Source: an uncultured Burkholderiaceae bacterium (GTDB taxonomy: Bacteria; Pseudomonadota; Gammaproteobacteria; Burkholderiales; Burkholderiaceae_C). From it: a DNA stretch of 64,000 nt. The translations under genes and the position numbers were made by a program. The stretch's first letter is position 1, and the number at the start of each line of letters is the position of its first letter. Location: positions 1,869,243 through 1,933,242 of the forward strand of contig OZ260072.1 of NCBI GenBank assembly GCA_965284315.1, written 5' to 3'. Shown here in pieces: positions 26,061 to 41,255 of this stretch. The notes beneath the pieces are model-generated. The model was not told where the DNA came from, did no database searches, and saw only the letters and a program-made list of their open reading frames with translations.

Positions 26061-26555
26061 ATGTTCAAGAAAATTCCGGTTCTCGCCTTTGGCCTGGCCA
26101 CGTTGACGCTGCTGTCCGCAGTCAGCAGCCACGCGAAACAGCCGCGTGAGCGTGTCTTGAAAAATGCCGAGGTGTTTGTTGACCAGCCCGACAACCTGGC
26201 CACCCGCGTGAAGGTGCTGACCGACGCCAAAGGTGGGTTCCAGGTGACCAACCTGAAACCAGGCATGTACAGAATCGTTGTGCAGACGGGTGAGCCCCCC
26301 AAAGACAAAGACGGCAAGAACCTGGCCGCCAACGACTATGTGGGCCCACAAGGCCTGCGTGGCGCGGTTCGCTGGGGTGAGGCGCGTAAACAGTATGGCG
26401 ACATCAACTACGTCACATTGACCATGGAGCCCACGCGCAGCACTGGCCCATTCAGCCAGAACCAGAAGCTCGTCAACGGGCGAACCATGGGCGTGTTTGT
26501 CACGGTCTACAGCGACAAGGAAGTTCTCAAAGGCGTGGTGACAGGGGAGCCTTGA
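26061..26555 (+). CDS. small secreted protein with carboxypeptidase-regulatory-like (Ig-like) segment
   Basis: Sec signal peptide MFKKIPVLAFGLATLTLLSAVSSHA. The stretch VKVLTDAKGGFQVTNLKPGMYRIVVQ resembles CarboxypepD_reg repeats. Lower GC than the flanks. Confidence 0.55.
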   Translation: MFKKIPVLAFGLATLTLLSAVSSHAKQPRERVLKNAEVFVDQPDNLATRVKVLTDAKGGFQVTNLKPGMYRIVVQTGEPPKDKDGKNLAANDYVGPQGLRGAVRWGEARKQYGDINYVTLTMEPTRSTGPFSQNQKLVNGRTMGVFVTVYSDKEVLKGVVTGEP

Positions 26556-26617: not shown

Positions 26618-26932
26618 ATGTTCTACAAAAAATCAGCAGCTCTGATCGTTGCAACTGCCAGCCTGTGTGTACCCACCGTGTCGCAGGCGAGCTTGGGCAT
26701 TGCCAGTGCGCAAAACTGCATGGAATGCCACGCTGTTGACCGCCATTTCAACGCACCGTCTTTCAGGCAGATCGGCGCACGGTACAAGGGTGACAAAACC
26801 GCCCAGGACCGTCTGGCCAAAAAAGTCTTGACAGGTGGCGGCGGCCAATGGGGTCCGAACTCCATGCCCCCCCAGATCATTACCAAGTCCGACGCGCAGA
26901 AAGTCGTGGCCTGGATACTCACCTTGAAGTAA
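26618..26932 (+). CDS. class I c-type cytochrome (c551/c8-like)
   Basis: Signal peptide, heme motif CMECH, and distal Met region (GPNSMPP). About 104 aa. Confidence 0.8.
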   Translation: MFYKKSAALIVATASLCVPTVSQASLGIASAQNCMECHAVDRHFNAPSFRQIGARYKGDKTAQDRLAKKVLTGGGGQWGPNSMPPQIITKSDAQKVVAWILTLK

Positions 26933-26963: not shown

Positions 26964-26991
26964 AAAAAGGGGCCCGAAGGCCCCTTTTTTT
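26964..26991. terminator. bidirectional rho-independent terminator
   Basis: AAAAA-GGGGCC-CGAA-GGCCCC-TTTTTTT between convergent genes. Confidence 0.85.
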
Positions 26992-27009: not shown

Positions 27010-28239
27010 TTACAGGAATTTGCCCACCGCACCCAAGGCGATAGGGCCAGCGATTGGCACTTCCTGAACCAGGTTGGTGATGGGCACAAGGGCTGGCAAG
27101 AGCACGTCGCCAACGGGGGCCAGAAGACCTGCCGATACGCCGCCCAAACCAGTCGCCGTCAGAACCTGGTGGAAAGGCAGGTCGTTGCTCAGCTGGTCGC
27201 CACCGCCAATGCCGGCAACAATGTCGTCCACGTACACGATCTGGTCGGTCAGGCCGGTGATCAAGTCGAGCGTGGCGTTGAGTTGCTTGCCGTCGGTGAA
27301 GTCACCGATCAGAGGCAGGTCTACTAAAGCACCTTCAATCGCATTGGTCAACGAACCCAAGATACCTTGCTCGGTCACCAGGAATTGCAGGTAGTCTTCC
27401 GACAGCAAACCACCGCTGTAGGCGCCGATGAAGGCGGTGACAGCGGGCAAGTCACCACCGACGACCATGCGCGTGATTTCATTTACCAGTGGGATGCCTT
27501 CGGTGAGGGCAACAGGGCGGGTGGCGAGTTCATACAAGAGGATTTCTTCACCGACCGAGTTGCCACCCAACAGGCTTTGGGCAAGCCCAAACAAAGGCGT
27601 GCCGTACAGCGGGGTCACCAGGAAGCTGGAGAGCGAACCACCTTCAACACCTTGGCCAACGATGCCGTTGAGGGCTTCGCCTAGGATGGGGATGCCGTAC
27701 GTTGCGTCGGCTAACGTGGCCAGCAAGCCGCCGATTGGCGAAGAGCTGCTGCCGCCGACGTCGCCAGTGCCGGAAGTACCCGCACCACCGCCCAAGCCAC
27801 CCAGACCGCCGCTGAGGAGGTCAAGGCCGGGCAGGCCACCACCGCCCAGGCCGCCGAGTGCGTCCACACCAGGCAGGGCCGCTGTGGCAGTGCCGCTACC
27901 CAAACCGCCGGTCAGGCCAGACAACAGGTCCAGCGGCGAACCGCCACCGGTCAAACCACCCAGCAGGTCCAATGGCGAGCCGCCACCGGTCAAACCACCC
28001 AGCAGGTCCAGCGGCGAACCGCCACCGGTCAAACCACCCAGCAGGTCCAATGGCGAGCCGCCACCGGTCAAACCACCGAGGATGCTCAGAGGTGAAGAAG
28101 AGCCTTCTTCGCCGCCACCAGTCAGGCCGGTCAACAGGCTCAGCGGGGAACCTGCGCCACCCGACAGACCGCCCAAGAGGCCGGTCAGGCTGCCGAGTCC
28201 GCCACCTGCGCTCAACAAAGAGTCAAAAGGAAGTGCCAT
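27010..28239 (-). CDS. orphan acidic Gly/Leu-rich repeat protein
   Basis: RBS GGAGA 8 nt upstream of the ATG. Codon usage matches the two upstream genes. N-terminal third is made of GSPLDLLGGLTGG repeats. No recognisable family, signal peptide or cofactor motif. Confidence 0.6.
   Translation of the reverse strand: MALPFDSLLSAGGGLGSLTGLLGGLSGGAGSPLSLLTGLTGGGEEGSSSPLSILGGLTGGGSPLDLLGGLTGGGSPLDLLGGLTGGGSPLDLLGGLTGGGSPLDLLSGLTGGLGSGTATAALPGVDALGGLGGGGLPGLDLLSGGLGGLGGGAGTSGTGDVGGSSSSPIGGLLATLADATYGIPILGEALNGIVGQGVEGGSLSSFLVTPLYGTPLFGLAQSLLGGNSVGEEILLYELATRPVALTEGIPLVNEITRMVVGGDLPAVTAFIGAYSGGLLSEDYLQFLVTEQGILGSLTNAIEGALVDLPLIGDFTDGKQLNATLDLITGLTDQIVYVDDIVAGIGGGDQLSNDLPFHQVLTATGLGGVSAGLLAPVGDVLLPALVPITNLVQEVPIAGPIALGAVGKFL
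27892..28086 (-). repeat. in-frame 39-bp tandem repeats (core 27931-28086, four units in ABAB pattern, plus degenerate flanking units)
   Basis: Plus-strand units cagcggcgaaccgccaccggtcaaaccacccagcaggtc and caatggcgagccgccaccggtcaaaccacccagcaggtc alternate. Both encode DLLGGLTGGGSPL. Confidence 0.9.
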
Positions 28240-28260
28240 TTTAATTCTCCAATATAAGGT

Positions 28261-28833
28261 TCAACGGAATGACGGCGCAGCAGCCATCATGGCGGCGCGG
28301 ATACGTGGGTACGTACCGCAGCGGCACATGTTGGCTTGCATGGCGTTCGTGATGCCTTCATCTGTCGCGGCACCTTTGACGCGGGTCAGATACTCGTAAG
28401 CGCTCATCAACTGACCCGCCTGACAAAAACCACACTGGGCAACGTCAAACTGTTCCCATGCGGCCTGCAGTGCAGGGCCGTTGGGCAGGCCCGACAGGCC
28501 TTCGATCGTGGTGATGTTGATTGCAGGAGTGCTGCCTGCCGCGACGCCGACGTCACCAATACGCGTCACGCAAGTACGGAATTTGTTCTTTTGCGTGGTT
28601 GGCTGTGTGCCGCTGAAACGGCTGTCAGGCGAGTAAGGGCTGTTGCCATTGCCGCCTTCAGCGACGATGGGTGTTGACGAGTTGCAGGTGCAAGCACCGC
28701 AAACGCCCACGCCACAACCGTACTTGGGGCCTGTCAATTCCAGCTTGTCGCGCAGGATGTACAGGAGGTAATCGTTCTTGTCAGCTGTAACGGTGCGTGG
28801 CGTGCCGTTCACTGAAATGGTAAAAGATGCCAT
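28261..28833 (-). CDS. (2Fe-2S)-binding small subunit of a molybdopterin oxidoreductase (IorA/CoxS-like)
   Basis: Cluster I CGVGVCGAC...C and cluster II QCGFCQAGQLMS...CRCGTY. An unusual long insertion lies inside cluster I. Confidence 0.85.
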   Translation of the reverse strand: MASFTISVNGTPRTVTADKNDYLLYILRDKLELTGPKYGCGVGVCGACTCNSSTPIVAEGGNGNSPYSPDSRFSGTQPTTQKNKFRTCVTRIGDVGVAAGSTPAINITTIEGLSGLPNGPALQAAWEQFDVAQCGFCQAGQLMSAYEYLTRVKGAATDEGITNAMQANMCRCGTYPRIRAAMMAAAPSFR

Positions 28834-28854: not shown

Positions 28855-31272
28855 TTAAGCGTCGGTCAGAGGGGCCGATGGCGAGTTGTAAATCGGCAGC
28901 TCTTCGGGCATGTGCGATTCCAGGCTTGGGTTCAGTTCGCGGTTGATGTCGGCCCAGGCGTTGGCCACAGCGGCCAATGCAGAAGGGGCACTCAGTTCAC
29001 CGGCACCACCCACGCGGTTGTCATTGATGTTGACAAACACGGTTGGGTTGAACTTGTAAGCGCACTCGCGCATGCGGTTCCAGTAGTAGTTCAAGAACGT
29101 GCTTTGCTGCGCAGCGCCATCAACAAAAGTGATTTTGCTGAAGTACACCATCGCGATGGCGTCGGCCAGAGCACCTTCGGCCATGGACGCACCACCCGAT
29201 GGGTTGGTGACCTTGCCCATGTCCACGGCAGCCCAGACTTCCTTCACGGTCGGTGGCACTTTCTTGATGTCGGCGTTGCGGGCCAGTTCTGACACCACGA
29301 TCTGCATGGAAGCGCTGTTCCATTCTTCGTGGCAACCGAAACCAATGCCTTGCACGGTGCTGGCACCACTGGCGTTGTGCGCTTTAACAGCCGCTGCAGC
29401 GGCGTCGTAGGTGGCCTTCATCTCGTTGAAGATGCCACGCAGGCGCTCGGACTTGAAGTACTTGAGGCGCAGCTCAAACGGGTTTTGACCCGTTTTGCGT
29501 GCCAGCTCGTCCATGAAGATTTCCTTGCCGCCCTGGCCGCTCACGCTGTACACGGCGCGCATGGCGCCGGTTGGGAACGGTGCCACGACTTCGCGGAAAG
29601 CTTCTGTGGTGTTGAACGAGTACGGCGATGGTGCCGACAGCGGGAAATAGTCGAAACCGGTCTGGTTGGTCGCCGACAGTAGGGTTTCCGTCGGGGTGTT
29701 GTCCACGCCAGAGGGCAGTTCGCACAGGATCGAGACAAACTTGTGGTTCAGGCTCAGGATGGATTTGCCGTCAGAACCAATGTTGGCAATGTAGCGGCTG
29801 AAGGTGGGCGGACGGTATGGGCACATGCGCAGATCGTCGTTGCGCGACCACATCACCTTGATACGGTTGGTGGTCACACCCTTGGCATTGGTCAAACCAC
29901 CCATCTTGCGGACAGCATCGGCGATGCGTGCGGACTCGGCAGACGATTCCACCAGCAGGTTGCGACCGAAGTGGCCGTAACCTTGTGTCACGTTGAGCAA
30001 CACCTTGGTAGGCGACAGGTCAAGACCAACCTGTTGGGCCAACTGTTGGCGGTTGAAACGCGGTACCTGCGATGCCCACCAGGCTTGCAGGCTGGTGCAA
30101 GGCCCGCTCTTGTCGCCGTAGGCTTCTGCCACACCAGCTTGCGTACCCAGGGTACCTTGGGCGTGGAAGCCCACGAAGAAACCACGCTTCACTTGCTTTG
30201 CGGCCAGCAATTTGCCGCCAGCGGGATCAGGACCCACGGCGTCTTTCAGCTTCTGGTTCAGCATGGGGGTGCTGAAACGGGCTGCGGTGCCTGGCTTCCA
30301 GGTGATCAGGTCTCGGGCCATGATCTGGTCACGGGCTTCCAGCGCGTCACCGAATGTGTCGGCCGCAATGCCCACGCCGGTGTAAATGGTGAAACCATTT
30401 TTGTTGGAGTTGAAGGGAATCACGGCCTTGACCAGCTTCGTGCCGTCTGGCTTGGTCAGGTTCATGATGGCCGCGGTGTCCACCTTGTCTGGTGCACCAC
30501 GGGTTTGCAGTGAGTGCATCACCAGCACGTTCACCGCATCCATTTGCGTGTCGATGGTGTACTTGAGGCTACCGTTGTAGATGGCCTTGCTGTCAATGCG
30601 TGGGATGCCAGTGCCTGGAACAAGGTCCGCGCTGTTGCCGCGAATTTTCATGCCTTTGCCCAGGAGACCACCGGCTTTTTGACCGCCTGCATCAACACCA
30701 TATGCCCAGGCAGATGCCACGGGGCGCGAGCCGAGGGTTGCGGCAGCTGCAGCAGGAGCCAAAGAGGCAAAAGTTTTGCCGCCAGCGGTTGGACCACCAG
30801 CGCCAGATGCGATAGGACCGCCGACAGCCAGCATGCGGGCGCGCAGTTCAGCGCCAACGGTACGAACTGGGTCGGTCAGCAGACGGGTTGAGCCAGAAGC
30901 GCCCACCAGCGTGGTGGTGAAGGCAGTGGCTTTTGCGGTCGTGAAGGATTGGCCAATCACATCGCTGACTGGAATGCCAATTTCGTCGGCCAACAGGATG
31001 GCCATGGAGGTCAAAATGCCTTGGCCCGATTCAACGCGTGGGATCGTCAGGATCACCTTGTTGTCGCTGCGAATCGCAACGTACGCGTTCATCTCTACAG
31101 ATGTTGTTTCAGCAGCCGTGGCGTCTGATGCGTCCGTGGCGAGCTTGACGCCAATGGTCAACGCGGCTGGTGTTGCCACCACCCAGGTCATGAAATTCCG
31201 GCGGTCAACTTTTGGTGTGCTGACCTCGGCGCTTGTGTTGTCGCTCTGAGGAACAAGGAGTTCAGTGTTCAT
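28855..31272 (-). CDS. xanthine dehydrogenase family molybdopterin-binding subunit (IorB-like), Tat-exported
   Basis: Tat signal RRNFMTWVVATPAALTIGV. IorB-like N-terminal motif (VAIRSDNKVILTIPRVESGQGILTSMAILLADE). 805 aa. Confidence 0.85.
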   Translation of the reverse strand: MNTELLVPQSDNTSAEVSTPKVDRRNFMTWVVATPAALTIGVKLATDASDATAAETTSVEMNAYVAIRSDNKVILTIPRVESGQGILTSMAILLADEIGIPVSDVIGQSFTTAKATAFTTTLVGASGSTRLLTDPVRTVGAELRARMLAVGGPIASGAGGPTAGGKTFASLAPAAAAATLGSRPVASAWAYGVDAGGQKAGGLLGKGMKIRGNSADLVPGTGIPRIDSKAIYNGSLKYTIDTQMDAVNVLVMHSLQTRGAPDKVDTAAIMNLTKPDGTKLVKAVIPFNSNKNGFTIYTGVGIAADTFGDALEARDQIMARDLITWKPGTAARFSTPMLNQKLKDAVGPDPAGGKLLAAKQVKRGFFVGFHAQGTLGTQAGVAEAYGDKSGPCTSLQAWWASQVPRFNRQQLAQQVGLDLSPTKVLLNVTQGYGHFGRNLLVESSAESARIADAVRKMGGLTNAKGVTTNRIKVMWSRNDDLRMCPYRPPTFSRYIANIGSDGKSILSLNHKFVSILCELPSGVDNTPTETLLSATNQTGFDYFPLSAPSPYSFNTTEAFREVVAPFPTGAMRAVYSVSGQGGKEIFMDELARKTGQNPFELRLKYFKSERLRGIFNEMKATYDAAAAAVKAHNASGASTVQGIGFGCHEEWNSASMQIVVSELARNADIKKVPPTVKEVWAAVDMGKVTNPSGGASMAEGALADAIAMVYFSKITFVDGAAQQSTFLNYYWNRMRECAYKFNPTVFVNINDNRVGGAGELSAPSALAAVANAWADINRELNPSLESHMPEELPIYNSPSAPLTDA

Positions 31273-31628: not shown

Positions 31629-32117
31629 TTAGCGCTTGGGGGGTGTCGCGCGCGCGGCCGCCGCGTCCTTGGGGGTTGGCATGTCGAGCGTCAACACGGG
31701 GGGGCCGTCCACACTGGCAGCGAGTTGGGCGCGGCGGGGTGACACTGCGCTCAGCACCAGCCCATCGGTGACGGTGCTGCCCACCTGGTAGGGTTTGGGT
31801 GGTTTGCCGTCAATGCCAATCAACGCAGCGGCGCTGTCTTCGCCGGCAATCACGCCCAGCAATGCCAGGCGGCTGGCCACTGTCGGTGCTGCGACGATGG
31901 CCACCTGGGCTTCGACTGCTCCCATCAGTTTGGCCACGGCGGATGCATCCACCAGCGCGCCCTCGTTGTTGGGCAGCAGCGAGGCGATGGCCGCACGGTC
32001 TGCCAATGCGCTGCCAGGCATGCGTCCGCTCCACTGCAAACCCCAGGCCACAGCACTGCCCATGGCCAAAGCCCAGACCAAAAATGCCAACCCAAGAGAC
32101 CAAGTTTTGCTTTGCAT
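31629..32117 (-). CDS. gspC: type II secretion system protein GspC (HR domain only, no PDZ)
   Basis: N-terminal TM helix and HR-like segment RLALLGVIAGEDSAAALIGIDGKPPKPYQVGSTVTDGLVLSAV. Divergent from gspG. Confidence 0.65.
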   Translation of the reverse strand: MQSKTWSLGLAFLVWALAMGSAVAWGLQWSGRMPGSALADRAAIASLLPNNEGALVDASAVAKLMGAVEAQVAIVAAPTVASRLALLGVIAGEDSAAALIGIDGKPPKPYQVGSTVTDGLVLSAVSPRRAQLAASVDGPPVLTLDMPTPKDAAAARATPPKR

Positions 32118-32182
32118 GCAACGATTATGATCCAGCTCAATCACAATACCGCGTGTGCATAACCACTGACCGATTGGCTTTT

Positions 32183-32611
32183 ATGAAGTTGTCTGCAAAA
32201 CGAATGGCGCGGGGTTTTACCCTGATCGAGTTGATGGTCGTGCTGGTCATCATTGGTGTACTGGCTGCGCTGATTGTTCCCAACGTGCTGGACCGTGCTG
32301 ACGACGCGCGGGTGACCGCCGCCCGCACCGATGTCAACAACATGGTGCAGGCCCTGAAGCTCTACAAACTCGACAACCAGCGCTTTCCCACCGCCGAGCA
32401 AGGTCTGCAGGCGCTGGTGACCAAGCCCACGGTTGGGCCGATTCCACCCAACTGGCGCCCTTACCTCGACAAGTTGCCCAAGGACGCATGGGGCCAGCCA
32501 TACCAGTACCTGAATCCAGGTGTACACCAGGAAATTGACGTGTTGTCGTTCGGGGCGGACGGGCAGGCCGGCGGTGAAGGGAAAAATGCCGACATCGGCA
32601 GCTGGCAATAA
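32183..32611 (+). CDS. gspG: type II secretion major pseudopilin GspG
   Basis: Prepilin leader plus GFTLIELMVVLVIIGVLAALIVP and the conserved GspG body (DAWGQPYQY, SFGADGQ). Confidence 0.93.
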   Translation: MKLSAKRMARGFTLIELMVVLVIIGVLAALIVPNVLDRADDARVTAARTDVNNMVQALKLYKLDNQRFPTAEQGLQALVTKPTVGPIPPNWRPYLDKLPKDAWGQPYQYLNPGVHQEIDVLSFGADGQAGGEGKNADIGSWQ

Positions 32612-32633
32612 AACCACCTGGCGCCCTACGTGA

Positions 32634-33086
32634 ATGCGATGCATGAATGGCTTTTCTGTCACGTCAGACCATCGCACGCGCGGTTTCACGCTGCTCGAGT
32701 TGTTGGTCGTCATTGCCTTGATTGCCATTGCGTCTGCCAGTGTCAGCTTTGCCTTCCGTGACTCGTCCGACACCCAGCTCCAGCGTGAAGCGGACCGCCT
32801 GGCAGCGCTGCTGGACTCGGCCCGCAGCCGCTCGCGCACCTTGGGCATGCCGGTGTACTGGCGTGCTGTGCCGGGTGGTTTTCGGTTCGAAGGCCTGCCA
32901 CTGGGCACCTTGCCCGAGCGCTGGCTGGTCGATGGCACGACCGTGGTCAACAACGGTGTGCTGATCCTGGGGCCTGAGCCCATCCTCGCGCGGCAGGGGA
33001 CGGTCATCGCGCTGCAGGGACGGCGCCTGCTGGTGGCAACCGACGGTGTGCGCCCGTTTGTGGTTCTGCCAGTGGGGGCGCCATGA
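32634..33086 (+). CDS. gspH: type II secretion minor pseudopilin GspH
   Basis: GFTLLELLVVIALIAI prepilin N-terminus; position after gspG. Confidence 0.8.
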   Translation: MRCMNGFSVTSDHRTRGFTLLELLVVIALIAIASASVSFAFRDSSDTQLQREADRLAALLDSARSRSRTLGMPVYWRAVPGGFRFEGLPLGTLPERWLVDGTTVVNNGVLILGPEPILARQGTVIALQGRRLLVATDGVRPFVVLPVGAP

Positions 33087-33448
33087 CACGCCCGTATCTG
33101 TCACGCGGTTTCACATTGATTGAGGTGCTGGTCGCGCTGGGCATTGTCTCGGTGGCGCTGATTGCCGGCATGCAGGCCAGCAGCGCGCTGACACGCAATG
33201 CCCAGCGGCAGGCCGATGGCTTGTTGGCGGAACTGTGCGCTGAGAACGAGTTGGTCAAAATCCGCTTGGCCGAGCAGTTTCCTGGTGTCGGTGAGAGCAC
33301 TTTCACCTGCACCCAGGTCGAACGTGTGCTGGAGGGGCGGTTGACCGTGGCGACCACGCCCAACCCTAATTTTCTGCGTGTCGATGCGCAGGTGTTTGAT
33401 GGGCCGTACAGCCTGTTGCGCATCTCTACCGTGGTGGGGCGTTTCTGA
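33083..33448 (+). CDS. gspI: type II secretion minor pseudopilin GspI
   Basis: GFTLIEVLVALGIVSVAL. ATGA overlap with gspH. Confidence 0.85.
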   Translation: MTRPYLSRGFTLIEVLVALGIVSVALIAGMQASSALTRNAQRQADGLLAELCAENELVKIRLAEQFPGVGESTFTCTQVERVLEGRLTVATTPNPNFLRVDAQVFDGPYSLLRISTVVGRF

Positions 33449-34125
33449 TGGCACGTCTTGCAAGACCGGCTGCGGGATTCACCCTGATCGAGCTCCTGGT
33501 CACGATCAGCATCATGGCCTTGATGACCCTGCTGAGCTGGCGTGGCATCGACGGCATGATGCGAACCAAAGACCAGCTGTCGGCGCGCAGCGACCAGGTG
33601 ATGACGCTGCAGACCGCCCTGACCCAGTGGACGGTGGACCTCGACAACCTGGCCGAAACCCGCGTGGTGAGCGCGGCGGACTACGACGGCAGCGTGCTGC
33701 GCATGACACGCCGTGATGCGGTCAGCCCAGCCGAGGGCTTGCGGGTGGTGGCGTGGACCCGCCGTCTTGCGGACGGCAATGCCTTCTGGGTGCGCTGGCA
33801 GTCACCCAACGTCCGAACCCAGTCTGACTTGTTGGCGGCCTGGGCCAAGGCGCAGCAATGGGGCCGAGAGCCAACGCCCGAAGACCGCGCCTTGGACATC
33901 CCCCTCGCGGTGCTGACCGATTGGCAGCTCTTTTATTACCGCGACAATGCCTGGAGCAACCCCCTCTCCAGCGCGGCGGACCCCAACCAACCTGTGGCCA
34001 GTGGACTGAATGCGCCACCCAAAGGGGTCAGGCTGGTGTTGGCCCTGGCGCCCGGTCAGCCGTTCGCGGGTGTTTTGACCCGCGATTGGGTGAGACCGCT
34101 GGTGGGTGGCGGGAAATCGCTGTGA
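33448..34125 (+). CDS. gspJ: type II secretion minor pseudopilin GspJ
   Basis: GFTLIELLVTISIMALM. 1-nt overlap with gspI (TGATG). Confidence 0.85.
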   Translation: MARLARPAAGFTLIELLVTISIMALMTLLSWRGIDGMMRTKDQLSARSDQVMTLQTALTQWTVDLDNLAETRVVSAADYDGSVLRMTRRDAVSPAEGLRVVAWTRRLADGNAFWVRWQSPNVRTQSDLLAAWAKAQQWGREPTPEDRALDIPLAVLTDWQLFYYRDNAWSNPLSSAADPNQPVASGLNAPPKGVRLVLALAPGQPFAGVLTRDWVRPLVGGGKSL

Positions 34126-35090
34126 GCCCTAAAAATACCCAGATGGGCGCAGCGCTGCTGACGGCCATGTTGACCGTGACACTGGTCGCGAGTTTTGCTG
34201 CCACCGCGCTGTGGCAGCAGTTCCGCAGCGTTGAGGTGGAGCGTGCCGAGCGCGAGCGTGTGCAGGCGACCTGGATTTTGAACGGTGCCCTGGACTGGGC
34301 GCGCCTGATCCTGCGTGAAGACGCCCGTTCCGGTGGGGCGGATTCGTTGTCTGAACCCTGGGCGGTACCGCTGGCCGAATCGCGCTTGTCCAGCTTTCTG
34401 GCGGCCGACCGCAACAACACCGACGACGACACTTCCGACACTTTTTTGTCGGGCCAGATCGTGGATGCGCAGTCGCGTTTGAATGTGGCCAACCTGCTCG
34501 ATGGTGGCAAACCGTCCCAGCTCGGCTTGCAGAGCTTTGCCCGGTTGTTCCAGGTGCTGGGTTTGCCAGAAGGTGAATTGAACCTGTTGGTCAACAATTT
34601 CCAGTTGGCAATGACCAGCACCGGTGGCGGGGGCAATGTTCCGCTGAGGCCCTTGCGCACGGATCAGTTGATCTGGCTCGGCATTGCCCCTGAAACACTG
34701 GCCCGACTCAAGCCTTTTGTGGTGCTGCTTCCCGTCAACACACCGGTCAACCTGAACACCGCTGGTGTCGAGGTGGTGTACGCCAGCATTCCGACCATCA
34801 CAATGGCCGATGCGCGCAAGTTGGTGGAGCAGCGCACCAAAACGCCATTCCGCTCCTTGTCGGAAGTGGGCATCTTCATGGTGGAGCTCGCCGGTTTGCT
34901 GACCGAAAGTCAGCAAAGTGTGTCCAGCCGCATGTTCGAGGTGTATGGTCGGCTGCGGATTGACAAGACCGTGATCCAGGAGCTCTCGCTGGTGGAGCGA
35001 GAGAATCTCAATGTGACGGCGCTTTACCGGGAACGCAGCGCTTTCGTGGACAACCCTGCCGCGGCCCAGGCCGACAGCACTCTAAAATAA
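34122..35090 (+). CDS. gspK: type II secretion minor pseudopilin GspK
   Basis: GAALLTAMLTVTLVA N-terminal helix and GspK-like body. GTG at 34122 overlaps the gspJ stop (an ATG at 34143 is an alternative start). Confidence 0.85.
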   Translation: MSPKNTQMGAALLTAMLTVTLVASFAATALWQQFRSVEVERAERERVQATWILNGALDWARLILREDARSGGADSLSEPWAVPLAESRLSSFLAADRNNTDDDTSDTFLSGQIVDAQSRLNVANLLDGGKPSQLGLQSFARLFQVLGLPEGELNLLVNNFQLAMTSTGGGGNVPLRPLRTDQLIWLGIAPETLARLKPFVVLLPVNTPVNLNTAGVEVVYASIPTITMADARKLVEQRTKTPFRSLSEVGIFMVELAGLLTESQQSVSSRMFEVYGRLRIDKTVIQELSLVERENLNVTALYRERSAFVDNPAAAQADSTLK

Positions 35091-35094
35091 TTCA

Positions 35095-36282
35095 ATGTCT
35101 TCGCTGATCGTCGTTCTCCCTGCTCCCGGAAGCCGTGTCAGCGCTGACTACGTCTACGCACTCACGCCCGATGGGCAAAGCCTCGCTGACCATGGCGTGG
35201 CACCTGCCAACCTGTTGCCAGACGCCACCGAACTGGTGGCGGTGGTGCCGGCCAAAATGGTGTCGTGGCACCGGCCCATCATTCCCAAAGCGCCGGCCAA
35301 CCGTTTGAGCGAGGTGCTGCAAGGCGCACTCGAAGAGAACCTGCTCGACGATCCGGAAACCCTGCACCTGGCACTGGCGCCGGGCGCGCGTTCGGCGCTG
35401 GGCAGCGGCGAGCCGATCTGGGTGGCTGCGTGCGACAAGGACTGGCTGCGGGAGGTGCTGGAAGGGCTGGAAACCGTGGGTTTGCGTGTCACGCGCATCG
35501 TGCCCGAGGTGGTGCCTGAGCTGGACCAGTGGTGGGTGCATGGCACGCCGCAGTCGGCCTGGTGTGCGCAGTCAGACGCCCAGGGCGTGGCGGTGTTGCC
35601 GTTGGCGGCGGTGCCGTCGGCCACCGTGCCAGGCGTGTTTGCCGAACCCGCTGTGGCGGCTTTGGCAGAGCAGACGCTGGGCGTCAAGGTGACGATTCGC
35701 CAGATGCCGCAGCAGCTGGTGCTGGCCGCACAGACCGACTGGAACCTGGCGCAGTTTGATCTGGCCACTGCCGGTCGCAAAGGCGCCAGCCAGCGCCTGC
35801 TGCATGGCTGGCAACTGTTTGCGCTGGCGCCGCAATGGCGGGCCTTGCGCTGGGGGCTCGGTGCCCTGTTTGTGGTCCAGCTGGTGGCCATCAATGGCCT
35901 GGCCTGGAGCGAAAAATCGGCGCTGAACGCCAAGCGCGCAGAGCTGCGCAAGATTTACCTGGACACCTTCCCGCAGAGCCAGGTGGTGCTCGACCCTGTG
36001 GCGCAAATGACGCGCGATGTGTCCGCCTTGCAGCAGGCGGTGGGGCAGGTCACTTACCGTGACATGGAGGTGATGCTGTCGTACGCGGCAGTGGTCTTGC
36101 CAGCCGGGCGCACGCCCAGTGCGGTGGAGTTCAAGCCGGGTGAAATCAGGCTCAATGGCATCAGCATCACGCCAGACGAACTCAAGGGCATGGACACGCG
36201 CTTGCGCGAAGCCGGCTACCAGATGACCAGCCAGGCCGACGGGCTGGTGCTCACCTTCAACCCAAACAAGGCCCGCCTGTGA
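35095..36282 (+). CDS. gspL: type II secretion system protein GspL
   Basis: Size, position, cytoplasmic actin-like N-terminal domain, and a single TM helix (WGLGALFVVQLVAINGLAW). Confidence 0.8.
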   Translation: MSSLIVVLPAPGSRVSADYVYALTPDGQSLADHGVAPANLLPDATELVAVVPAKMVSWHRPIIPKAPANRLSEVLQGALEENLLDDPETLHLALAPGARSALGSGEPIWVAACDKDWLREVLEGLETVGLRVTRIVPEVVPELDQWWVHGTPQSAWCAQSDAQGVAVLPLAAVPSATVPGVFAEPAVAALAEQTLGVKVTIRQMPQQLVLAAQTDWNLAQFDLATAGRKGASQRLLHGWQLFALAPQWRALRWGLGALFVVQLVAINGLAWSEKSALNAKRAELRKIYLDTFPQSQVVLDPVAQMTRDVSALQQAVGQVTYRDMEVMLSYAAVVLPAGRTPSAVEFKPGEIRLNGISITPDELKGMDTRLREAGYQMTSQADGLVLTFNPNKARL

Positions 36283-36764
36283 GCCGTTTTTCCGACCTCC
36301 GCCTACCGGGTTGGTGGCAGTCCATTCCGTCCGAGACGCGCACGCTGGGTGTCCTGGTGTCGGCTGCGCTGGCCGTGGTGCTGCTGTCTGCGCTGACCAT
36401 TCTCCCGTCCCTGAAGGTGTTGCGGCTGGCGCCGGCTGACCACCAGCAACTGGATCAGCAGCTGGACCTGATGCGCAATCTGGCGACGCAGGCACAAAGC
36501 GCCAAGGCCCAGCCCAAACCCGGTGCCGACGACGCGCTGAAGTTCCTGGACACCGCGGTCAAACAGTCGCTGGCAGCGACCGCCCAAATGACAGTGTCGG
36601 GCGACCGCGCCACCATCACGCTCAAAAACGCCACGCCCGAATCGGTCACCGCCTGGCTGACCGCCGTGCGTGCTACTGGTCGGCTGTTGCCTGCCGAAGC
36701 CAAACTCAGCCGGAGCGACGCGGGTTGGAGTGGCCAGTTGGTCGTCAACCTGCCGCAGAAGTGA
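36279..36764 (+). CDS. gspM: type II secretion system protein GspM
   Basis: GTGA overlap with gspL. N-terminal TM helix plus a periplasmic domain; position in the cluster. Confidence 0.75.
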   Translation: MSRFSDLRLPGWWQSIPSETRTLGVLVSAALAVVLLSALTILPSLKVLRLAPADHQQLDQQLDLMRNLATQAQSAKAQPKPGADDALKFLDTAVKQSLAATAQMTVSGDRATITLKNATPESVTAWLTAVRATGRLLPAEAKLSRSDAGWSGQLVVNLPQK

Positions 36765-36772
36765 GCCGGACC

Positions 36773-37591
36773 ATGGTGACCCGCCCACGTTCCCCTGCCG
36801 TTGCCGCACCCGCCGGGTCGCGGACGCGCCGGCTTGCCTGGTTTGGGGCATTGACAGGTGGCCTGCTGGCCATCGTGTTCTGGATGCCAGCCCATTGGCT
36901 GACCGGCGTCGTCAACCGCGCCTCACAGCAGCGCGTGGTGCTTGAAGACGCCCGTGGCACGGTTTGGACGGGTTCGGCCCGCCTGCTCGTCAGCGGTGGC
37001 GAGGGCAGCCGCGATGTGGCCGCCTTGCCAGGTCGGGTGGACTGGCGGCTGCGCCCCACTTTCACCGGCGCCTGGCTGGAGCTGCAGTCCACCTGCTGTA
37101 CCCGCGTACCGGTCGAGATCGATGCCAGTCCGCGTTGGAACGGTGCCGTGCTGCAAGTGGGGTCGTTGCAACTGCGCTGGCCGATGGGCCTGCTGGCGGG
37201 GCTGGGGACACCCTGGAACACGGTGCAATTGCAGGGCAACCTCGACATGAATTCGGATGGCTTGACGCTGGCCTGGGACAGCGGTCGCTTGCAGGCCACC
37301 GGCCAGGTGCGCATGGAGGCGACCGACGTGGCGTCCCGGTTGTCCACCCTGCGGCCGCTTGGCAGCTACCTGCTGGAATTGGTGGCGCCCGGTCCGGGGC
37401 AGGACCCAAGCCTGAGCCTGAAAACACTCAGTGGCAATTTGATTCTCACTGGCCAGGGCCAGTGGGTGGGTGCGCGGCTCCGGTTTTCGGGTGAAGCGAC
37501 CGCCGTGGAAGGGCGCGAAGCGGCCCTGGACAATTTACTCAATATCATCGGGCGCAGAAGCGGCGCGCGCTCCATCATTACCGTGGGCTGA
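36773..37591 (+). CDS. gspN: type II secretion system protein GspN
   Basis: N-terminal TM helix (LAWFGALTGGLLAIVFW); position between gspM and gspD. A GTG at 36761 is an alternative start. Confidence 0.7.
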   Translation: MVTRPRSPAVAAPAGSRTRRLAWFGALTGGLLAIVFWMPAHWLTGVVNRASQQRVVLEDARGTVWTGSARLLVSGGEGSRDVAALPGRVDWRLRPTFTGAWLELQSTCCTRVPVEIDASPRWNGAVLQVGSLQLRWPMGLLAGLGTPWNTVQLQGNLDMNSDGLTLAWDSGRLQATGQVRMEATDVASRLSTLRPLGSYLLELVAPGPGQDPSLSLKTLSGNLILTGQGQWVGARLRFSGEATAVEGREAALDNLLNIIGRRSGARSIITVG

Positions 37592-37595
37592 CCTC

Positions 37596-39845
37596 ATGAA
37601 ACATTACCCGTTGGCGACTGTTCGCTTCTCGCTTGTGGCGCTGCTCTGCACCCCGTTGCTGCTGCAGGCGCAGACCGACCCCGCGCCCGCCACGACCGCG
37701 TCGGCGCCTGCCAAAGCGGCATCCGCCAAAGCGGCATCGGCAAAAAACACCCGGGCCACATCGCGGGCCAGTGAACAGGTGACGCTGGATTTTGCCAACG
37801 CCGACATCGAGGCGGTGGCCCGCACGATTGCCACCATCACCGGCCGCAACGTGGTGGTGGACCCGCGCGTCAAGGGCACGGTCAATCTGTCGAGCGACCG
37901 GCCGGTGTCACCTCAGGTGGCGTTCAACCAGTTCCTGGCCGCATTGCGTTTGCAGGGCTTCACCGTGGTGGAAAGCTCGGGGCTGTACAAGGTGGTGCCG
38001 GAAGCCGATGCCAAGGTGCAGGGCGGTTCGGTGAATGTGGGGTCTGTGGAACTGGGTCCACGCCTGGCGGGCAACCAGATTGCCACCCAGATTTTCCGGC
38101 TGAACTTCGAGAGTGCCAACAACTTGGTGCCAATTTTGCGGCCCTTGATCAGCCCGAACAACACCATCAACGTCAACCCTGGCAACAACTCACTGATCAT
38201 CACCGACTACGCCGAGAACCTGCAGCGGATGGGCCGCATCATTGCATCCATGGACGTGGCTAACGGCACCGACCTGGAGATCATCCCGCTGCGCTACGCG
38301 ATTGCATCCGACATCGCGCCATTGGTCCTGCGACTGATTGATTCCGGCGGCGGTGCTGCGGCGGGTCAAGGCCAGGCCGACACCTCGTTCCGCACCACCA
38401 TCGTGGCCGAGTCGCGCAGCAATGCGCTGATTGTGCGGGCCGCCAACCCGGCCCGTGTGGGCCTGGTGCGCACCTTGGTGGCCAAGCTGGACCAACCCAC
38501 CTCGTCCAGCCCGACTGGCAACGTGTATGTGGTGTACCTGAAGAATGCAGACGCCACCAAAATGGCGGCCATTTTGCGCGCCACCATTGGCGGACAAGGC
38601 GGGGCATCCGTCTCTGTGTCTGCAACACCTGCGACCTCGACACAGGCGGGCCTGGGCGCGCAGGGCGCAGCCGGTGGCCTGGGATCGGCCAGTGGGGGTC
38701 TGGGTGGGCTGGGCAGTCTGGCAGGGGGCAGTTCGTCCTCACAGGGCGGCGGAAGCTCTTTCTCGGGGGGCGGTGGTGCCCAACCGTCCACCGGCGGGCA
38801 AATCCAGGCCGACCCGTCCATCAACGCGCTGATCATCACCGCCAGCGAGCCGCAATACCGGCAAATCCGTGCGGTGATCGACCGACTGGATGGCCGCCGT
38901 GCGCAGGTGTTTCTGGAAAGCCTGATCGTTGAGGTGAACACCGACAAGGCCGCCCAGTTCGGCGTGCAATTGCAAACCCTGTTGGGCAACCGCGGTGGCG
39001 GTACTCTGGGCGCGGTGGGCAGCAATTTCAGTGGGGGCTCCACGGCCAACATCATTGGTGTGCAGACCACCGCCGCCAGCGGCAACCTGCCGTCGCTGGG
39101 GCAAGGCCTGAACCTTGGCGTGGCGACACGGCAGTCGAACGGCGCCTATGTGCTGAACGCGCTGGCCAGCTTCCTGGAGTCCTCCGGCAGCGGCAACATT
39201 CTGTCAACGCCCAACCTGCTGACGCTGGACAACGAAGAGGCCAAGATCGTGATTGGCCAGAACGTGCCATTTGTGTCGGGCTCCTTCACCAACACCGGTG
39301 GCACCGGTGGCGCAGTCAACCCGTTCCAGACGGTGGAGCGCAAAGACGTTGGCTTGACCCTGCGGGTGAAGCCACAAATCAGCGAAGACGGCACCATCAA
39401 GATGCAGATTTTCCAAGAGGTGTCGAGCGTGGACCCGGCGTCGGTCAACGCGCTGACGGGCTTGATCACCAACAAGCGCTCGATCGAATCGAACGTGGTG
39501 GTGGACGACGGTTCCATCGTGGTGCTGGGCGGTTTGTTGACCGACGAGTACTCCGGTTCGGCGCAGCAGGTGCCTTTGCTGGGCAACATCCCTTACCTGG
39601 GCAATCTGTTCAAGAACCAGAACCGCTCGCGCAAGAAAACCAACCTGATGATGTTCCTGCGCCCGGTGGTGGTGCGCGATGGCGACTCCACCGAGCGCCT
39701 GTCGCTGGACCGCTACGACTTCATGCGCCGCAAGGAAATCGAGGCCCAGCCCAAGCCCAACGCGGTGATGCAGGTCAACGAGTCGGCGCTGTTGCCCGCA
39801 TTGCGGCCTTCTTCCAGAATCCAGCCAGCGCCGGACAAGCAGTAA
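37596..39845 (+). CDS. gspD: type II secretion outer-membrane secretin GspD
   Basis: Signal peptide, N0-N3 domains, and C-terminal secretin domain (VPLLGNIPYLGNLF...LMMFLRP). Confidence 0.95.
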   Translation: MKHYPLATVRFSLVALLCTPLLLQAQTDPAPATTASAPAKAASAKAASAKNTRATSRASEQVTLDFANADIEAVARTIATITGRNVVVDPRVKGTVNLSSDRPVSPQVAFNQFLAALRLQGFTVVESSGLYKVVPEADAKVQGGSVNVGSVELGPRLAGNQIATQIFRLNFESANNLVPILRPLISPNNTINVNPGNNSLIITDYAENLQRMGRIIASMDVANGTDLEIIPLRYAIASDIAPLVLRLIDSGGGAAAGQGQADTSFRTTIVAESRSNALIVRAANPARVGLVRTLVAKLDQPTSSSPTGNVYVVYLKNADATKMAAILRATIGGQGGASVSVSATPATSTQAGLGAQGAAGGLGSASGGLGGLGSLAGGSSSSQGGGSSFSGGGGAQPSTGGQIQADPSINALIITASEPQYRQIRAVIDRLDGRRAQVFLESLIVEVNTDKAAQFGVQLQTLLGNRGGGTLGAVGSNFSGGSTANIIGVQTTAASGNLPSLGQGLNLGVATRQSNGAYVLNALASFLESSGSGNILSTPNLLTLDNEEAKIVIGQNVPFVSGSFTNTGGTGGAVNPFQTVERKDVGLTLRVKPQISEDGTIKMQIFQEVSSVDPASVNALTGLITNKRSIESNVVVDDGSIVVLGGLLTDEYSGSAQQVPLLGNIPYLGNLFKNQNRSRKKTNLMMFLRPVVVRDGDSTERLSLDRYDFMRRKEIEAQPKPNAVMQVNESALLPALRPSSRIQPAPDKQ

Positions 39846-39858
39846 GCAAGGGATTTTT

Positions 39859-41250
39859 GTGCGTTACCCGCTTCCGTACGCCTTTGCGCGCACCCACAAA
39901 CTGCTGTTGCTCGACGACGGCAAGGACCTGAGCCTGTGCCGCAGTGACGGGACTTCCCCTGGCGCGCTGGGCGAGGTGATGCGCAAGTTCGACATCCGCA
40001 CGGTGGAGCGGTTGCCAAACGATGTGCTGGTCCAGCGCATCAGCGTGGCGTATTCGCAGGGCGAGTCGAGCGCCGCCACCGTGGTCAGCGAGGTTGAGAA
40101 CGACGCCGACCTGTCACGCATGATGCAAGACTTGCCGGCGGTGGAAGACCTGCTGGAGTCGGCCGACGACGCGCCCATCATCCGCATGCTCAACGCCCTG
40201 CTGACGCAGGCCGCGCGCGACGGCGCCAGCGACATCCACATTGAGCCGTACGAGCGCCATTCGTCGGTGCGTTTCCGGGTGGACGGCACGCTGCGCGAGG
40301 TGGTGCAGCCCAACCGGGCCTTGCACGCCGCCCTGATCTCGCGCCTCAAGATCATGGCGGAACTGGACATCTCCGAAAAGCGTTTGCCGCAAGACGGCCG
40401 CATCAGCCTGCGCATCGGCACCCGCGCGGTGGACGTGCGGGTCAGTACCCTGCCCAGCGCCCATGGCGAGCGGGCGGTGCTGCGTTTGCTCGACAAGAGC
40501 GAGAGCAAGCTGAGCCTGGAATCGGTGGGTATGGAGGGCGATGTGCTGGCGCGGCTGGAAAGCCTGGTGTTGCAGCCGCACGGCATCATTCTGGTGACGG
40601 GCCCGACAGGTTCCGGCAAGACCACCACGCTCTACGCAGCGCTGCAGCGGCTCGACGCCAGCAAGCAGAACATCATGACGGTGGAAGACCCGATTGAATA
40701 CGAGCTGTCCGGCGTGGGCCAGACGCAGGTGAATGCCAAGATCGACCTGACCTTTGCCAAGGCCTTGCGCGCCATCCTGCGCCAGGACCCGGACGTGATC
40801 ATGATCGGTGAGATCCGCGACTACGAAACCGCGCAGATCGCCATCCAGGCCTCACTCACCGGCCACCTGGTGCTGGCCACGCTGCACACCAACGACGCGG
40901 CCAGCGCCGTGACCCGCCTGACCGACATGGGGGTGGAGCCTTTCCTGCTCAGCTCGTCGCTGCTGGGTGTGCTGGCGCAGCGGCTGGTGCGCAAGCTCTG
41001 CACGTCGTGCGGCGGGGCGGGCTGTGGCGAATGCGGGCAAACCGGCTACCAGGGCCGCACCGGTGTGTTCGAACTGCTGGTGACCGACGACAACATGCGC
41101 GCGTTGATCCACAACCAGGTGGCCGAAGCCGACATCCGCGCCGCGGCACTGAAGGCCGGCATGTCGCTGATGCGTGACGACGGTGAGCGGCTGGTGCGTT
41201 CCGGCATTACCTCGCGTGAAGAGCTGGTTCGCGTAACACGCGAGTCCTGA
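39859..41250 (+). CDS. gspE: type II secretion ATPase GspE
   Basis: Walker A GPTGSGKTT, Asp/His boxes, and a tetracysteine motif (CTSCGGAGCGECGQTGYQGR). Confidence 0.95.
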   Translation: MRYPLPYAFARTHKLLLLDDGKDLSLCRSDGTSPGALGEVMRKFDIRTVERLPNDVLVQRISVAYSQGESSAATVVSEVENDADLSRMMQDLPAVEDLLESADDAPIIRMLNALLTQAARDGASDIHIEPYERHSSVRFRVDGTLREVVQPNRALHAALISRLKIMAELDISEKRLPQDGRISLRIGTRAVDVRVSTLPSAHGERAVLRLLDKSESKLSLESVGMEGDVLARLESLVLQPHGIILVTGPTGSGKTTTLYAALQRLDASKQNIMTVEDPIEYELSGVGQTQVNAKIDLTFAKALRAILRQDPDVIMIGEIRDYETAQIAIQASLTGHLVLATLHTNDAASAVTRLTDMGVEPFLLSSSLLGVLAQRLVRKLCTSCGGAGCGECGQTGYQGRTGVFELLVTDDNMRALIHNQVAEADIRAAALKAGMSLMRDDGERLVRSGITSREELVRVTRES

Positions 41251-41255
41251 CCCGC

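Follow-up and report, generated by a model that had tools for sequence, protein, structure and literature searches.

Introduction

Molybdoenzymes of the xanthine-oxidase family are generally regarded as built on a small set of subunit plans, in which molybdenum (Mo) and iron-sulfur (Fe-S) components are combined with or without flavin adenine dinucleotide (FAD) or a cytochrome c, and to which XdhC-type chaperones are added. The closest described relatives of the system treated here are AldFGH, a membrane-bound aldehyde dehydrogenase of three subunits from Gluconobacter oxydans (PDB 8GY3), the third subunit of which we take to be a multi-haem cytochrome c, and the IorAB (isoquinoline 1-oxidoreductase) enzymes. 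We have analysed a stretch of 64,000 nucleotides (the window) from an uncultured Burkholderiaceae bacterium (contig OZ260072.1, positions 1,869,243 to 1,933,242), in which a divergent IorAB-like gene pair, called here L (large subunit) and S (small subunit), is followed by a third gene, X, for a hyper-acidic protein rich in Gly and Leu. Comparison of the homologous loci indicates that X represents a genuine, rare, lineage-restricted and undescribed family with a clear genomic partner, and we put the probability that its product is a dedicated physical partner of L-S, either as a subunit or as a chaperone, at about 0.7.

The genes and the export motif on which this view depends are listed below.

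27010..28239, minus strand: gene X, open reading frame (ORF) for the 409-aa hyper-acidic Gly/Leu-rich protein, third and last gene of the cassette
28261..28833, minus strand: gene S, 190-aa IorA/AldG-like small subunit with two [2Fe-2S] domains (Pfam Fer2 and Fer2_2), isoelectric point (pI) 8.4
28855..31272, minus strand: gene L, 805-aa divergent IorB/AldH-like molybdopterin-binding large subunit, pI 8.85 (Pfam and PDB matches)
31183..31209, minus strand: twin-arginine motif VDRRNFMTW, residues 22-30 of L, after the conserved n-region MNTELLxPQS (read from the sequence)
26618..26932, plus strand: c551-type monohaem cytochrome c, 104 aa, with a Sec-type signal and a mature pI of ~9.8 (Pfam Cytochrom_C; NCBIfam c551)

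The cassette resembles AldFGH and IorAB in the IorB-type domain layout and twin-arginine signal of L, in the two [2Fe-2S] domains of S, in having no FAD subunit, and in that a c-type cytochrome is the presumed acceptor. It is unlike them in its gene order, which is L-S-X and not small-then-large, in the low identity of L to ordinary IorB (23-25%), and in an insertion of ~34 aa in S. From AldFGH in particular it differs in that its third gene, X, has no Cys and cannot bind haem c, and that a separate basic c551-type cytochrome is encoded convergently.

Linkage and co-divergence of the three genes

One important basis for regarding X as a partner of L-S is the strictness of their linkage. Every one of the 24 fetched loci whose upstream DNA is long enough to show it has S directly before X, the 23 that extend far enough all have L before S, and the intergenic gaps measure 18-27 nt in nine diverse cassettes. 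A second basis is that the linkage survives changes of the neighbourhood: the cassette is found downstream of gspC beside a type II secretion system (T2SS) cluster (the window and loci L003, L018, L019 and L020), adjoining metXW (loci L005 and L006), or at the far end of a T2SS cluster, beyond gspF (locus L007). The partner view is further supported because the clade of L proteins is co-extensive with the X family, and because the pairwise identity matrices of L, S and the C-terminal domain of X correlate with r = 0.84-0.94.

The same view is strengthened by a Comamonadaceae metagenome-assembled genome (MAG), D4_MAG_00044 (GCA_027490925.1), which has two complete L-S-X cassettes, at loci L018 and L005, with mutual identities of 61% (L), 64% (S) and 52% (X). 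The former is located at the gspC/T2SS site with a cytochrome c gene and the latter beside metXW, with neither cytochrome c nor T2SS. Unless the bin is chimeric, the pair of cassettes points to the unit having been duplicated or transferred as a whole at an early date. Since L, S and X co-diverge and the cassettes of this one genome differ in all three genes, the three genes travel and diverge as a unit.

The X family and its distribution

The initial annotation of this DNA, made without database searches, had called X an orphan of unrecognised architecture and had proposed a homology search. Orphan status no longer holds, because ~40 homologues are now known, down to 36-39% identity, with the same two-gene Mo/Fe-S neighbour wherever upstream sequence was available; the search brought relatives but no described family, and the architecture is still without a match in Pfam, NCBIfam or PDB. 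A word-indexed search of 5.8 billion clusters gave 36 full-length relatives with 50-88% identity in the conserved half, below which only low-complexity matches were obtained. An exhaustive phmmer search with the C-terminal domain against 1.84 billion 50%-identity representatives gave four clusters in all, the remote members among them being P0059 (43%) and P0060 (39%), and a profile search with a 12-sequence alignment of this domain found no further remote relatives. The family occurs at 7 loci among 185,579 species-representative genomes and in 5 of 241 million metagenome records. All hosts are uncultured MAGs labelled Comamonadaceae, Burkholderiaceae or Pseudomonadota, at least one of which came from a pond.

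In all 36 close homologues we found 28-43 Asp plus Glu (D+E) against 3-5 Lys plus Arg (K+R), no Cys or Trp, ~22% Gly and ~18% Leu; since this composition is shared by all of them, the bias of X is no chance feature of one ORF. Pfam and NCBIfam gave no match at E<0.1 for X and none at E<1 for 16 members, the PDB profile search with the family gave no relevant match (best E 0.96, irrelevant), and no paper containing the repeat sequence of X was found in the literature. An 86-kb NCBI contig carries P0058 (152 aa), a shortened and internally frameshifted copy of the C-terminal domain, in which an out-of-frame stretch rich in Arg, Trp and Cys separates two in-frame segments 96% identical to X of the window. 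It is either a sequencing or assembly frameshift or a pseudogene in a close relative.

X as a coding gene

High-GC DNA gives long ORFs on both strands, and we therefore considered whether X may be spurious, or whether the Pro-rich frame on the opposite strand (27428-28399, plus strand), which is open for 323 codons in the window and which the initial annotation had named as a possible expressed product, may be the true gene. The wobble positions are common to the two frames, so that third-position variation cannot separate them. The comparative data refute both possibilities, leaving them almost no weight. The sense frame is intact in every homologue, the C-terminal domain keeps 42 invariant residues, and the ratio of nonsynonymous to synonymous substitution rates (dN/dS) is 0.14-0.20 against the orthologues of loci L011 and L018, which are unsaturated pairs. 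Substitutions at codon positions 1/2/3 number 27/10/61 and 55/25/119 for two orthologues; the minimum falls at sense position 2, which is position 1 of the antisense frame, as expected for DNA coding in the X frame. The antisense frame is interrupted in all eight orthologues examined, by 5-12 stops in four of them (loci L019, L003, L006 and L010) and by 2-5 stops in the other four, and it crosses the ribosome-binding site of X and the intergenic gap into the 3' end of the Pfam-supported 2Fe-2S gene.

Two further features accompany the reading frame.

28246..28250, minus strand: Shine-Dalgarno sequence GGAGA of X, 7 nt 5' of the ATG (read from the sequence); the S-X intergenic gap is 21 nt
26964..26991, no strand assigned: GC-rich hairpin GGGGCC-TTCG-GGCCCC between an A-run and a T-run (read from the sequence)

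The GC content at third codon positions (GC3) is 0.69 for X and 0.65 and 0.70 for the two upstream genes. The earlier claim of a real gene, which had been based on the ribosome-binding site and codon usage, is sustained by dN/dS, by the pattern of substitutions and by the intact frame of the homologues, and the evidence indicates that X is a real, selected gene in the minus-strand frame. The hairpin with its T-run is located downstream of the X stop, between the convergent X and cytochrome c genes, and is likely to serve both as a bidirectional intrinsic terminator; a consensus promoter and terminator scan was uninformative and did not list it.

The enzyme encoded by L and S

L scores 46.8 bits with Pfam MoCoBD_2, above the cut-off, and 25 bits with MoCoBD_1, just below it; its best PDB match is 8GY3_C (E 4e-14), the large subunit of the Gluconobacter aldehyde dehydrogenase. 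The nearest relatives of L outside the cassettes are ordinary IorB proteins, one of which was examined for its context and showed the canonical small-then-large gene order and no X, the order being inverted in the cassettes. The ESGQG motif is present in eight of the nine L proteins (EAGQG at locus L010), and the active-site Glu of the EGA motif likewise in eight of the nine. The large subunit of locus L007 (GCA_964551485.1) has Thr (NATGALADAV) at the aligned position of this Glu, which the other eight keep; the cause could be a shift in the alignment or a genuine change in the chemistry.

The best PDB match of S is 8GY3_B (E 2.6e-28), in the alignment of which a gap reveals the ~34-aa insertion within the first [2Fe-2S] domain of S; the insertion is family-specific and conserved. 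All eight cluster Cys are conserved in the nine S proteins. With ESGQG and the active-site Glu in eight of nine L proteins and all cluster Cys in S, the L-S enzyme looks catalytically competent. All nine L proteins carry VDRR[ND]F[MI]TW followed by a hydrophobic stretch, a predicted signal for twin-arginine translocation (Tat), and the preceding n-region is unusually conserved for proteins with 47-80% mutual identity; neither S nor X carries an export signal. By its Mo-binding domains with Glu, its two [2Fe-2S] domains with eight Cys and the twin-arginine signal on L, the sequence of L-S qualifies it as a member of the IorAB/AldGH type of the xanthine-oxidase family, very divergent and of inverted gene order. 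An Rfam scan of the whole window, which would include a molybdenum cofactor (Moco) riboswitch upstream of L, gave no match.

Charge pattern and the convergent cytochrome c

In nine cassettes the pI of L is 7.6-8.9 (one L at 7.55) and that of S 8.4-9.0, and the net charge of X is -20 to -38; the charge of X is thus opposite to that of its operon partners. The c551-type cytochrome is convergent with X across the shared hairpin, and a homologue with a Sec signal is present at the same position in seven loci (the window, L003, L007, L010, L018, L019 and L020), including the two most remote ones, with an approximate mature pI that is always 9.6-10.1. The classical Pseudomonas c551 is acidic. An adjacent cytochrome c gene is missing only in the metXW-context paralogues and in contigs too short to show it. 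We consider the c551-type cytochrome to be the likely electron acceptor of L-S. In the window its gene overlaps the stop of a gene for a CarboxypepD_reg-like periplasmic protein (26061-26555), apparently forming an operon with it.

Architecture of the X protein

X contains 34 D+E against 4 K+R (2 Lys and 2 Arg), one His, two Met and no Cys or Trp; the major residues are Gly 98 (24%), Leu 84 (21%), Ser 32, Ala 29, Thr 29, Val 24, Pro 23, Asp 21, Ile 19 and Glu 13. The computed pI is at most 4.05 and the grand average of hydropathy (GRAVY) +0.63. The protein has a conserved N-terminal peptide, a low-complexity region and a conserved C-terminal domain, and the repeats are also visible in the DNA.

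28198..28239, minus strand: conserved N-terminal peptide M-A-(I-A)-L-P-F-D-x-L-L-x-G-G, residues 1-14 of X (alignments)
27745..28197, minus strand: low-complexity G/L/S/P/T/D region, residues 15-165 of X (composition and per-orthologue motif counts)
27925..28077, minus strand: 39-nt tandem repeat x3.9 (as a 78-nt unit x2.0 with 100% identity), encoding the GSPLDLLGGLTGG 13-mers (TRF)
27013..27744, minus strand: conserved non-repetitive C-terminal domain, residues 166-409 of X, net charge -20, predicted all-alpha (alignment)

In the family alignments P4 and L8 of the N-terminal peptide are almost invariant, and the peptide is kept even in the repeat-poor remote homologue P0060; it is the founding copy of the 'LPxLDxL' motif. 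Residues 1-165 consist only of G60, L41, S20, T12, P9, A8, D8, E2, V2, M1, F1 and I1, and the low-complexity region within them consists of [GS]-[SL]-P-(G)-L-D-x-L-x-G-L motifs in series with Gly-run spacers, whose length and motif copy number differ among homologues (~150 aa in the window, ~35 aa in P0060). Four perfect 13-mers of the form GSPLDLL[GS]GLTGG start at residues 61, 74, 87 and 100, and degenerate copies are found at residue 30 by pattern match and at about residue 48 by eye. Because the 78-nt unit occurs twice with 100% identity, the DNA repeat is a recent duplication. In appearance the motif resembles a short amphipathic helix with an N-cap (S/N-P-x-D/E). The C-terminal domain (~245 aa) has its 42 invariant columns in an alignment of 12 sequences with identities as low as 38%; it includes the conserved blocks GGN(S/T)xG(D/E)E, YSGGxLSEDxLQ and TDQxxYVDD and, at its end, the conserved tail QEVxIAGPIxLGxxGK-phi-phi (phi, hydrophobic); no significant internal repeats were detected in it by hhalign of sub-segments (all probabilities <9%).

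We searched X for signals of export and membrane insertion. There is no RR pair, no Lys or Arg in residues 1-30 and, by regular-expression search, no GGxGxD motif. The best 19-mer has a summed apparent free energy of insertion (dGapp) of +4.5 kcal/mol, the value being at least +3.7 in every family member and, within the last 60 residues, +5.0 to +9.6 kcal/mol in nine members; dGapp and Kyte-Doolittle scans gave no plausible membrane-spanning segment, and a tail anchor or transmembrane (TM) helix at the hydrophobic C-terminus was ruled out by them. Two motifs were rejected by eye: a double-glycine bacteriocin leader at the N-terminus, because the hydrophobic and acidic residues are wrongly placed for one and the neighbourhood has no C39 ABC exporter, and a Ca2+ loop resembling that of EF-hands.

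AlphaFold2 gave a mean predicted local distance difference test (pLDDT) score of 44.9 for full-length X with a 36-sequence multiple sequence alignment (MSA) and of 46.1 for the C-terminal domain alone with a 12-sequence MSA. Short helices were placed on the first motifs only, the repeats were disordered (pLDDT <50), and the C-terminal domain was all-helical at low pLDDT; at these scores the models are unusable for assigning a fold. On the protein itself the initial annotation was accurate: its residue counts agree with ours (about 35 acidic residues given, 34 counted, the rest exact), as does its division into an N-terminal repeat part and a non-repetitive C-terminal part, and its statements that X has no Sec or Tat signal, is not of the repeats-in-toxin (RTX) type and is not collagen-like are supported. 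The disorder and structure prediction that it had suggested yielded the pattern of helices and disorder just described and no usable fold.

The 13-mer is not confined to X. In the form G-[SN]-P-L-[DENS]-[LV]-[LVI]-x-G-[LIV]-[TV]-G-G it makes tandem repeats in the unrelated proteins P0037, P0043, P0048 and P0056. It occurs in a 715-aa Acinetobacter 'beta strand repeat-containing protein' (GNPLEVITDIIGGVTGG), which is hyper-acidic, poor in Lys and Arg and free of Cys and Trp; in a 512-aa protein whose N-terminus resembles a signal peptide by eye (P0037; GSPLDLLGGLTG, GSPLNVVTGLVGG); and in a Nocardioidaceae protein and a 277-aa protein (NPLDLLGGLTGGN). No Pfam match falls on the repeat in these proteins, and the genomic context of the Acinetobacter protein gave no clue to secretion or to an enzyme. 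The 13-mer looks like an undescribed recurrent short-helix repeat module, either convergent or mobile.

Known molybdoenzyme components compared with X

Several known kinds of molybdoenzyme component were examined as candidates for X and rejected. X is not a cytochrome c subunit, for none of 36 members has a Cys for a CxxCH site and no Sec signal is present; it is not an FAD-binding medium subunit (CoxM/PaoB/XdhB), for there is no match to FAD_binding_5 or CO_deh_flav_C in Pfam or NCBIfam; and it is not a homologue of XdhC/PaoD or TorD/NarJ, for there is no match to PF02625, PF13478 or PF02613 and the best PDB hit has E 0.96. Known Tat hitch-hikers (FdnH with FdnG, hydrogenase large subunits, PaoB/PaoC with PaoA) are like X in having no signal of their own beside a Tat-signalled enzyme and in a hydrophobic C-terminus (PMC10924467); unlike X, they are redox or catalytic subunits of ordinary composition. 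The C-tails of the FdnH type are true TM helices, of which X has none by dGapp, and we therefore rejected X as a C-tail-anchored hitch-hiker of that type, although it stands signal-less beside a Tat substrate. Redox enzyme maturation proteins (REMPs; TorD/DmsD/NarJ and NapD) and the xanthine dehydrogenase (XDH) chaperones XdhC/PaoD share with X that they are operon-encoded, often last in the operon, acidic, without signal or cofactor and specific to one enzyme; X differs from them in showing no sequence similarity, in being roughly double TorD in size, and in its low-complexity repeat half and extreme residue bias. By analogy with these systems, X may work like a hitch-hiker subunit or like an REMP.

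Export with the enzyme or maturation in the cytoplasm

The role that we tentatively prefer for X, at somewhat less than even odds, is that of a Tat hitch-hiker serving as a cofactor-less acidic adaptor on which a basic cytochrome docks. While still in the cytoplasm, X would attach to the basic L-S heterodimer by its C-terminal domain, which is conserved, strongly anionic and predicted to be helical, and would cross the inner membrane as a hitch-hiker on the twin-arginine signal of L. In the periplasm it would take the slot of the cytochrome c or FAD subunit of related enzymes as a non-redox adaptor, its negative surface joining the basic L-S enzyme to the basic c551-type cytochrome c, and the capped amphipathic helices of its N-terminal part ('S/L-P-L-D-L-L') would form, with their Gly linkers, a flexible, length-variable and multivalent arm. 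Binding, co-export and docking are steps that we infer from the charge complementarity in nine cassettes together with the basic c551-type protein in seven loci, and from the occurrence of an RR motif in L with no signal in S or X. The adaptor role is also suggested because the enzyme looks competent and its closest solved structure, 8GY3, is a three-subunit one; X itself, with neither Cys nor Trp and no sites rich in His, has no known means of binding haem, Fe-S or FAD. Its poverty in costly and reactive residues, and the presence of the 13-mer in P0037 with its signal-peptide-like N-terminus, fit an extracytoplasmic life. For Tat substrates it is established that partners without a signal can be exported as hitch-hikers (PMC10924467).

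In function, X as an adaptor would be comparable with a mitochondrial protein unrelated to it in sequence, size and organism. This is the 'hinge' subunit of the bc1 complex (Qcr6/UQCRH), which is small, cofactor-less and very acidic, and is thought to aid the docking of basic cytochrome c.

Several points weigh against an exported adaptor. The charge argument is circumstantial. Quality control by the Tat system tends to turn away substrates in which unstructured hydrophobic stretches are exposed, and the 150 Gly/Leu-rich residues of X may form such a stretch. The hydrophobic C-tail provides no TM anchor, so that a membrane tether is unexplained; with pLDDT of 45-46 for both the full length and the C-terminal domain, there is no docking surface or fold to inspect; and the paralogous cassettes in the metXW context have no adjacent cytochrome c. 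Lastly, the position of X, the last and signal-less gene of a Mo-enzyme operon, is the classical one of a cytoplasmic maturation chaperone.

This last point leads to the possibility, which is nearly as likely as the adaptor and which we hold open at lower odds, that X is never exported and acts in the cytoplasm as a chaperone specific to this system, for maturation or Tat proofreading, in a role analogous to that of TorD/DmsD/NapD or XdhC/PaoD. Such a chaperone would bind the basic hydrophobic Tat signal, apo-L-S, or both, and would shield them electrostatically from the anionic membrane until insertion of Moco and Fe-S and assembly of L-S are complete. The last-gene slot of Mo-enzyme operons is used by torD, narJ, paoD and xdhC, and X occupies it without a signal peptide and with no Lys or Arg in its first 30 residues. 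Its C-terminal domain is predicted, at low pLDDT, to be all-alpha like TorD-family chaperones; an acidic X would suit basic clients; the unusual conservation of MNTELLxPQS across the L proteins suggests a specific binder; and no XdhC-like or TorD-like gene was seen in the cassette or its flanks. X has, however, no similarity to TorD/NarJ (PF02613) or XdhC (PF02625/PF13478), and known chaperones are of ordinary composition, so that the near-absence of Lys, Arg, Cys, Trp and His, the 150-aa low-complexity array and the rapid turnover of its repeats would be unexplained. The conserved basic cytochrome neighbour, moreover, would have no role in maturation.

A more elaborate form of the adaptor, which we regard as quite doubtful, would make X the first of a new class of polyanionic, half-disordered 'sticker-and-spacer' subunits with virtually no nucleophilic residues (Lys, Arg, Cys, His and Trp). 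Its multivalent LPxLDLL helix array would organise the periplasmic Mo aldehyde or heterocycle dehydrogenase and the basic cytochrome c into an electrostatic assembly, possibly a condensate, and its want of nucleophilic side chains would make X itself immune to reactive aldehyde substrates.

T2SS neighbourhood and the possibility of secretion

The complete T2SS cluster of the window (31629-42503) lies directly upstream of the cassette and begins with the following gene.

31629..32021, minus strand: gspC of the T2SS (Pfam label), 356 nt upstream of L; given as context, not as a demonstrated part of the system

The remainder of the cluster, gspG-N, gspD, gspE and gspF on the plus strand, diverges from gspC; gspC and gspG-N were labelled by Pfam, and gspD/E/F by ORF length and by the labelled clusters of loci L007 and L018. 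Several lineages have T2SS genes next to the cassette, in two arrangements: on the gspC side and, at locus L007, beyond gspF. This neighbourhood raises the possibility that X, by itself or together with L-S, ends up on the cell surface or in the medium, as Tat-then-T2SS cargo, as a surface tether, or as a harpin-like or type I secretion system (T1SS)-like acidic Gly-rich protein that has no more than its operon in common with the enzyme. X does resemble proteins exported unfolded, and fast-varying repeats are typical of surface proteins. T2SS substrates, however, need a Sec or Tat route, which is absent from X itself, and the T2SS adjacency is missing in the metXW-context cassettes and may among close relatives simply be inherited synteny. 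In addition, no T1SS or type III secretion system (T3SS) genes were found within +/-8-10 kb of any locus examined (nine neighbourhoods for T3SS), and no paper was found in the literature that links IorAB-type enzymes with T2SS or with an X-like partner.

Harpins (HrpN, HrpZ, PopA, Hpa1) are by definition Gly-rich, acidic and Cys-free proteins without a cleavable signal peptide (PMC6945534, PMC3571957), a description that covers X, and several have a similar length of ~340-400 aa. X differs in being far richer in Leu and poorer in Lys and Arg, in having no homology to harpins and no hrp/T3SS context, and in being always tied to a Mo enzyme; the hosts are uncultured MAGs, at least one from a pond, with nothing linking them to plants or plant pathogens. 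X was accordingly rejected as a harpin, the composition agreeing and the family match in Pfam and the T3SS linkage being absent, and also as an RTX/T1SS substrate, for it has no GGxGxD and no T1SS gene in its flanks. With no match to these or any other secreted-protein family, secretion appears to us the least probable of the functional roles considered for X, and an unlikely one.

Implications

A view of X as the partner of a novel periplasmic branch of molybdenum dehydrogenases is well supported by the comparisons of sequence and gene order. The family is very rare, and no long-standing question depends on it. Its importance is that L-S-X adds a new plan to those of the xanthine-oxidase family: the third component is of extreme composition, without ligands for a cofactor and without a known fold, and it co-evolves strictly with an IorB-like branch that has diverged almost beyond recognition by Pfam. 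As an exported adaptor, X would be the earliest known case of such a Tat hitch-hiker with neither a redox nor a catalytic function, and an example of charge bridging between a basic enzyme and a basic cytochrome. As a chaperone, it would represent a new factor in Tat/Moco maturation, with no relationship to TorD or XdhC. If the sticker-and-spacer idea were true, the 13-mer in unrelated acidic proteins of Acinetobacter, an actinobacterium and others would mark a widespread undescribed structural module. L-S-X, together with the c551-type cytochrome, is a concrete target for heterologous expression from uncultured freshwater Comamonadaceae.

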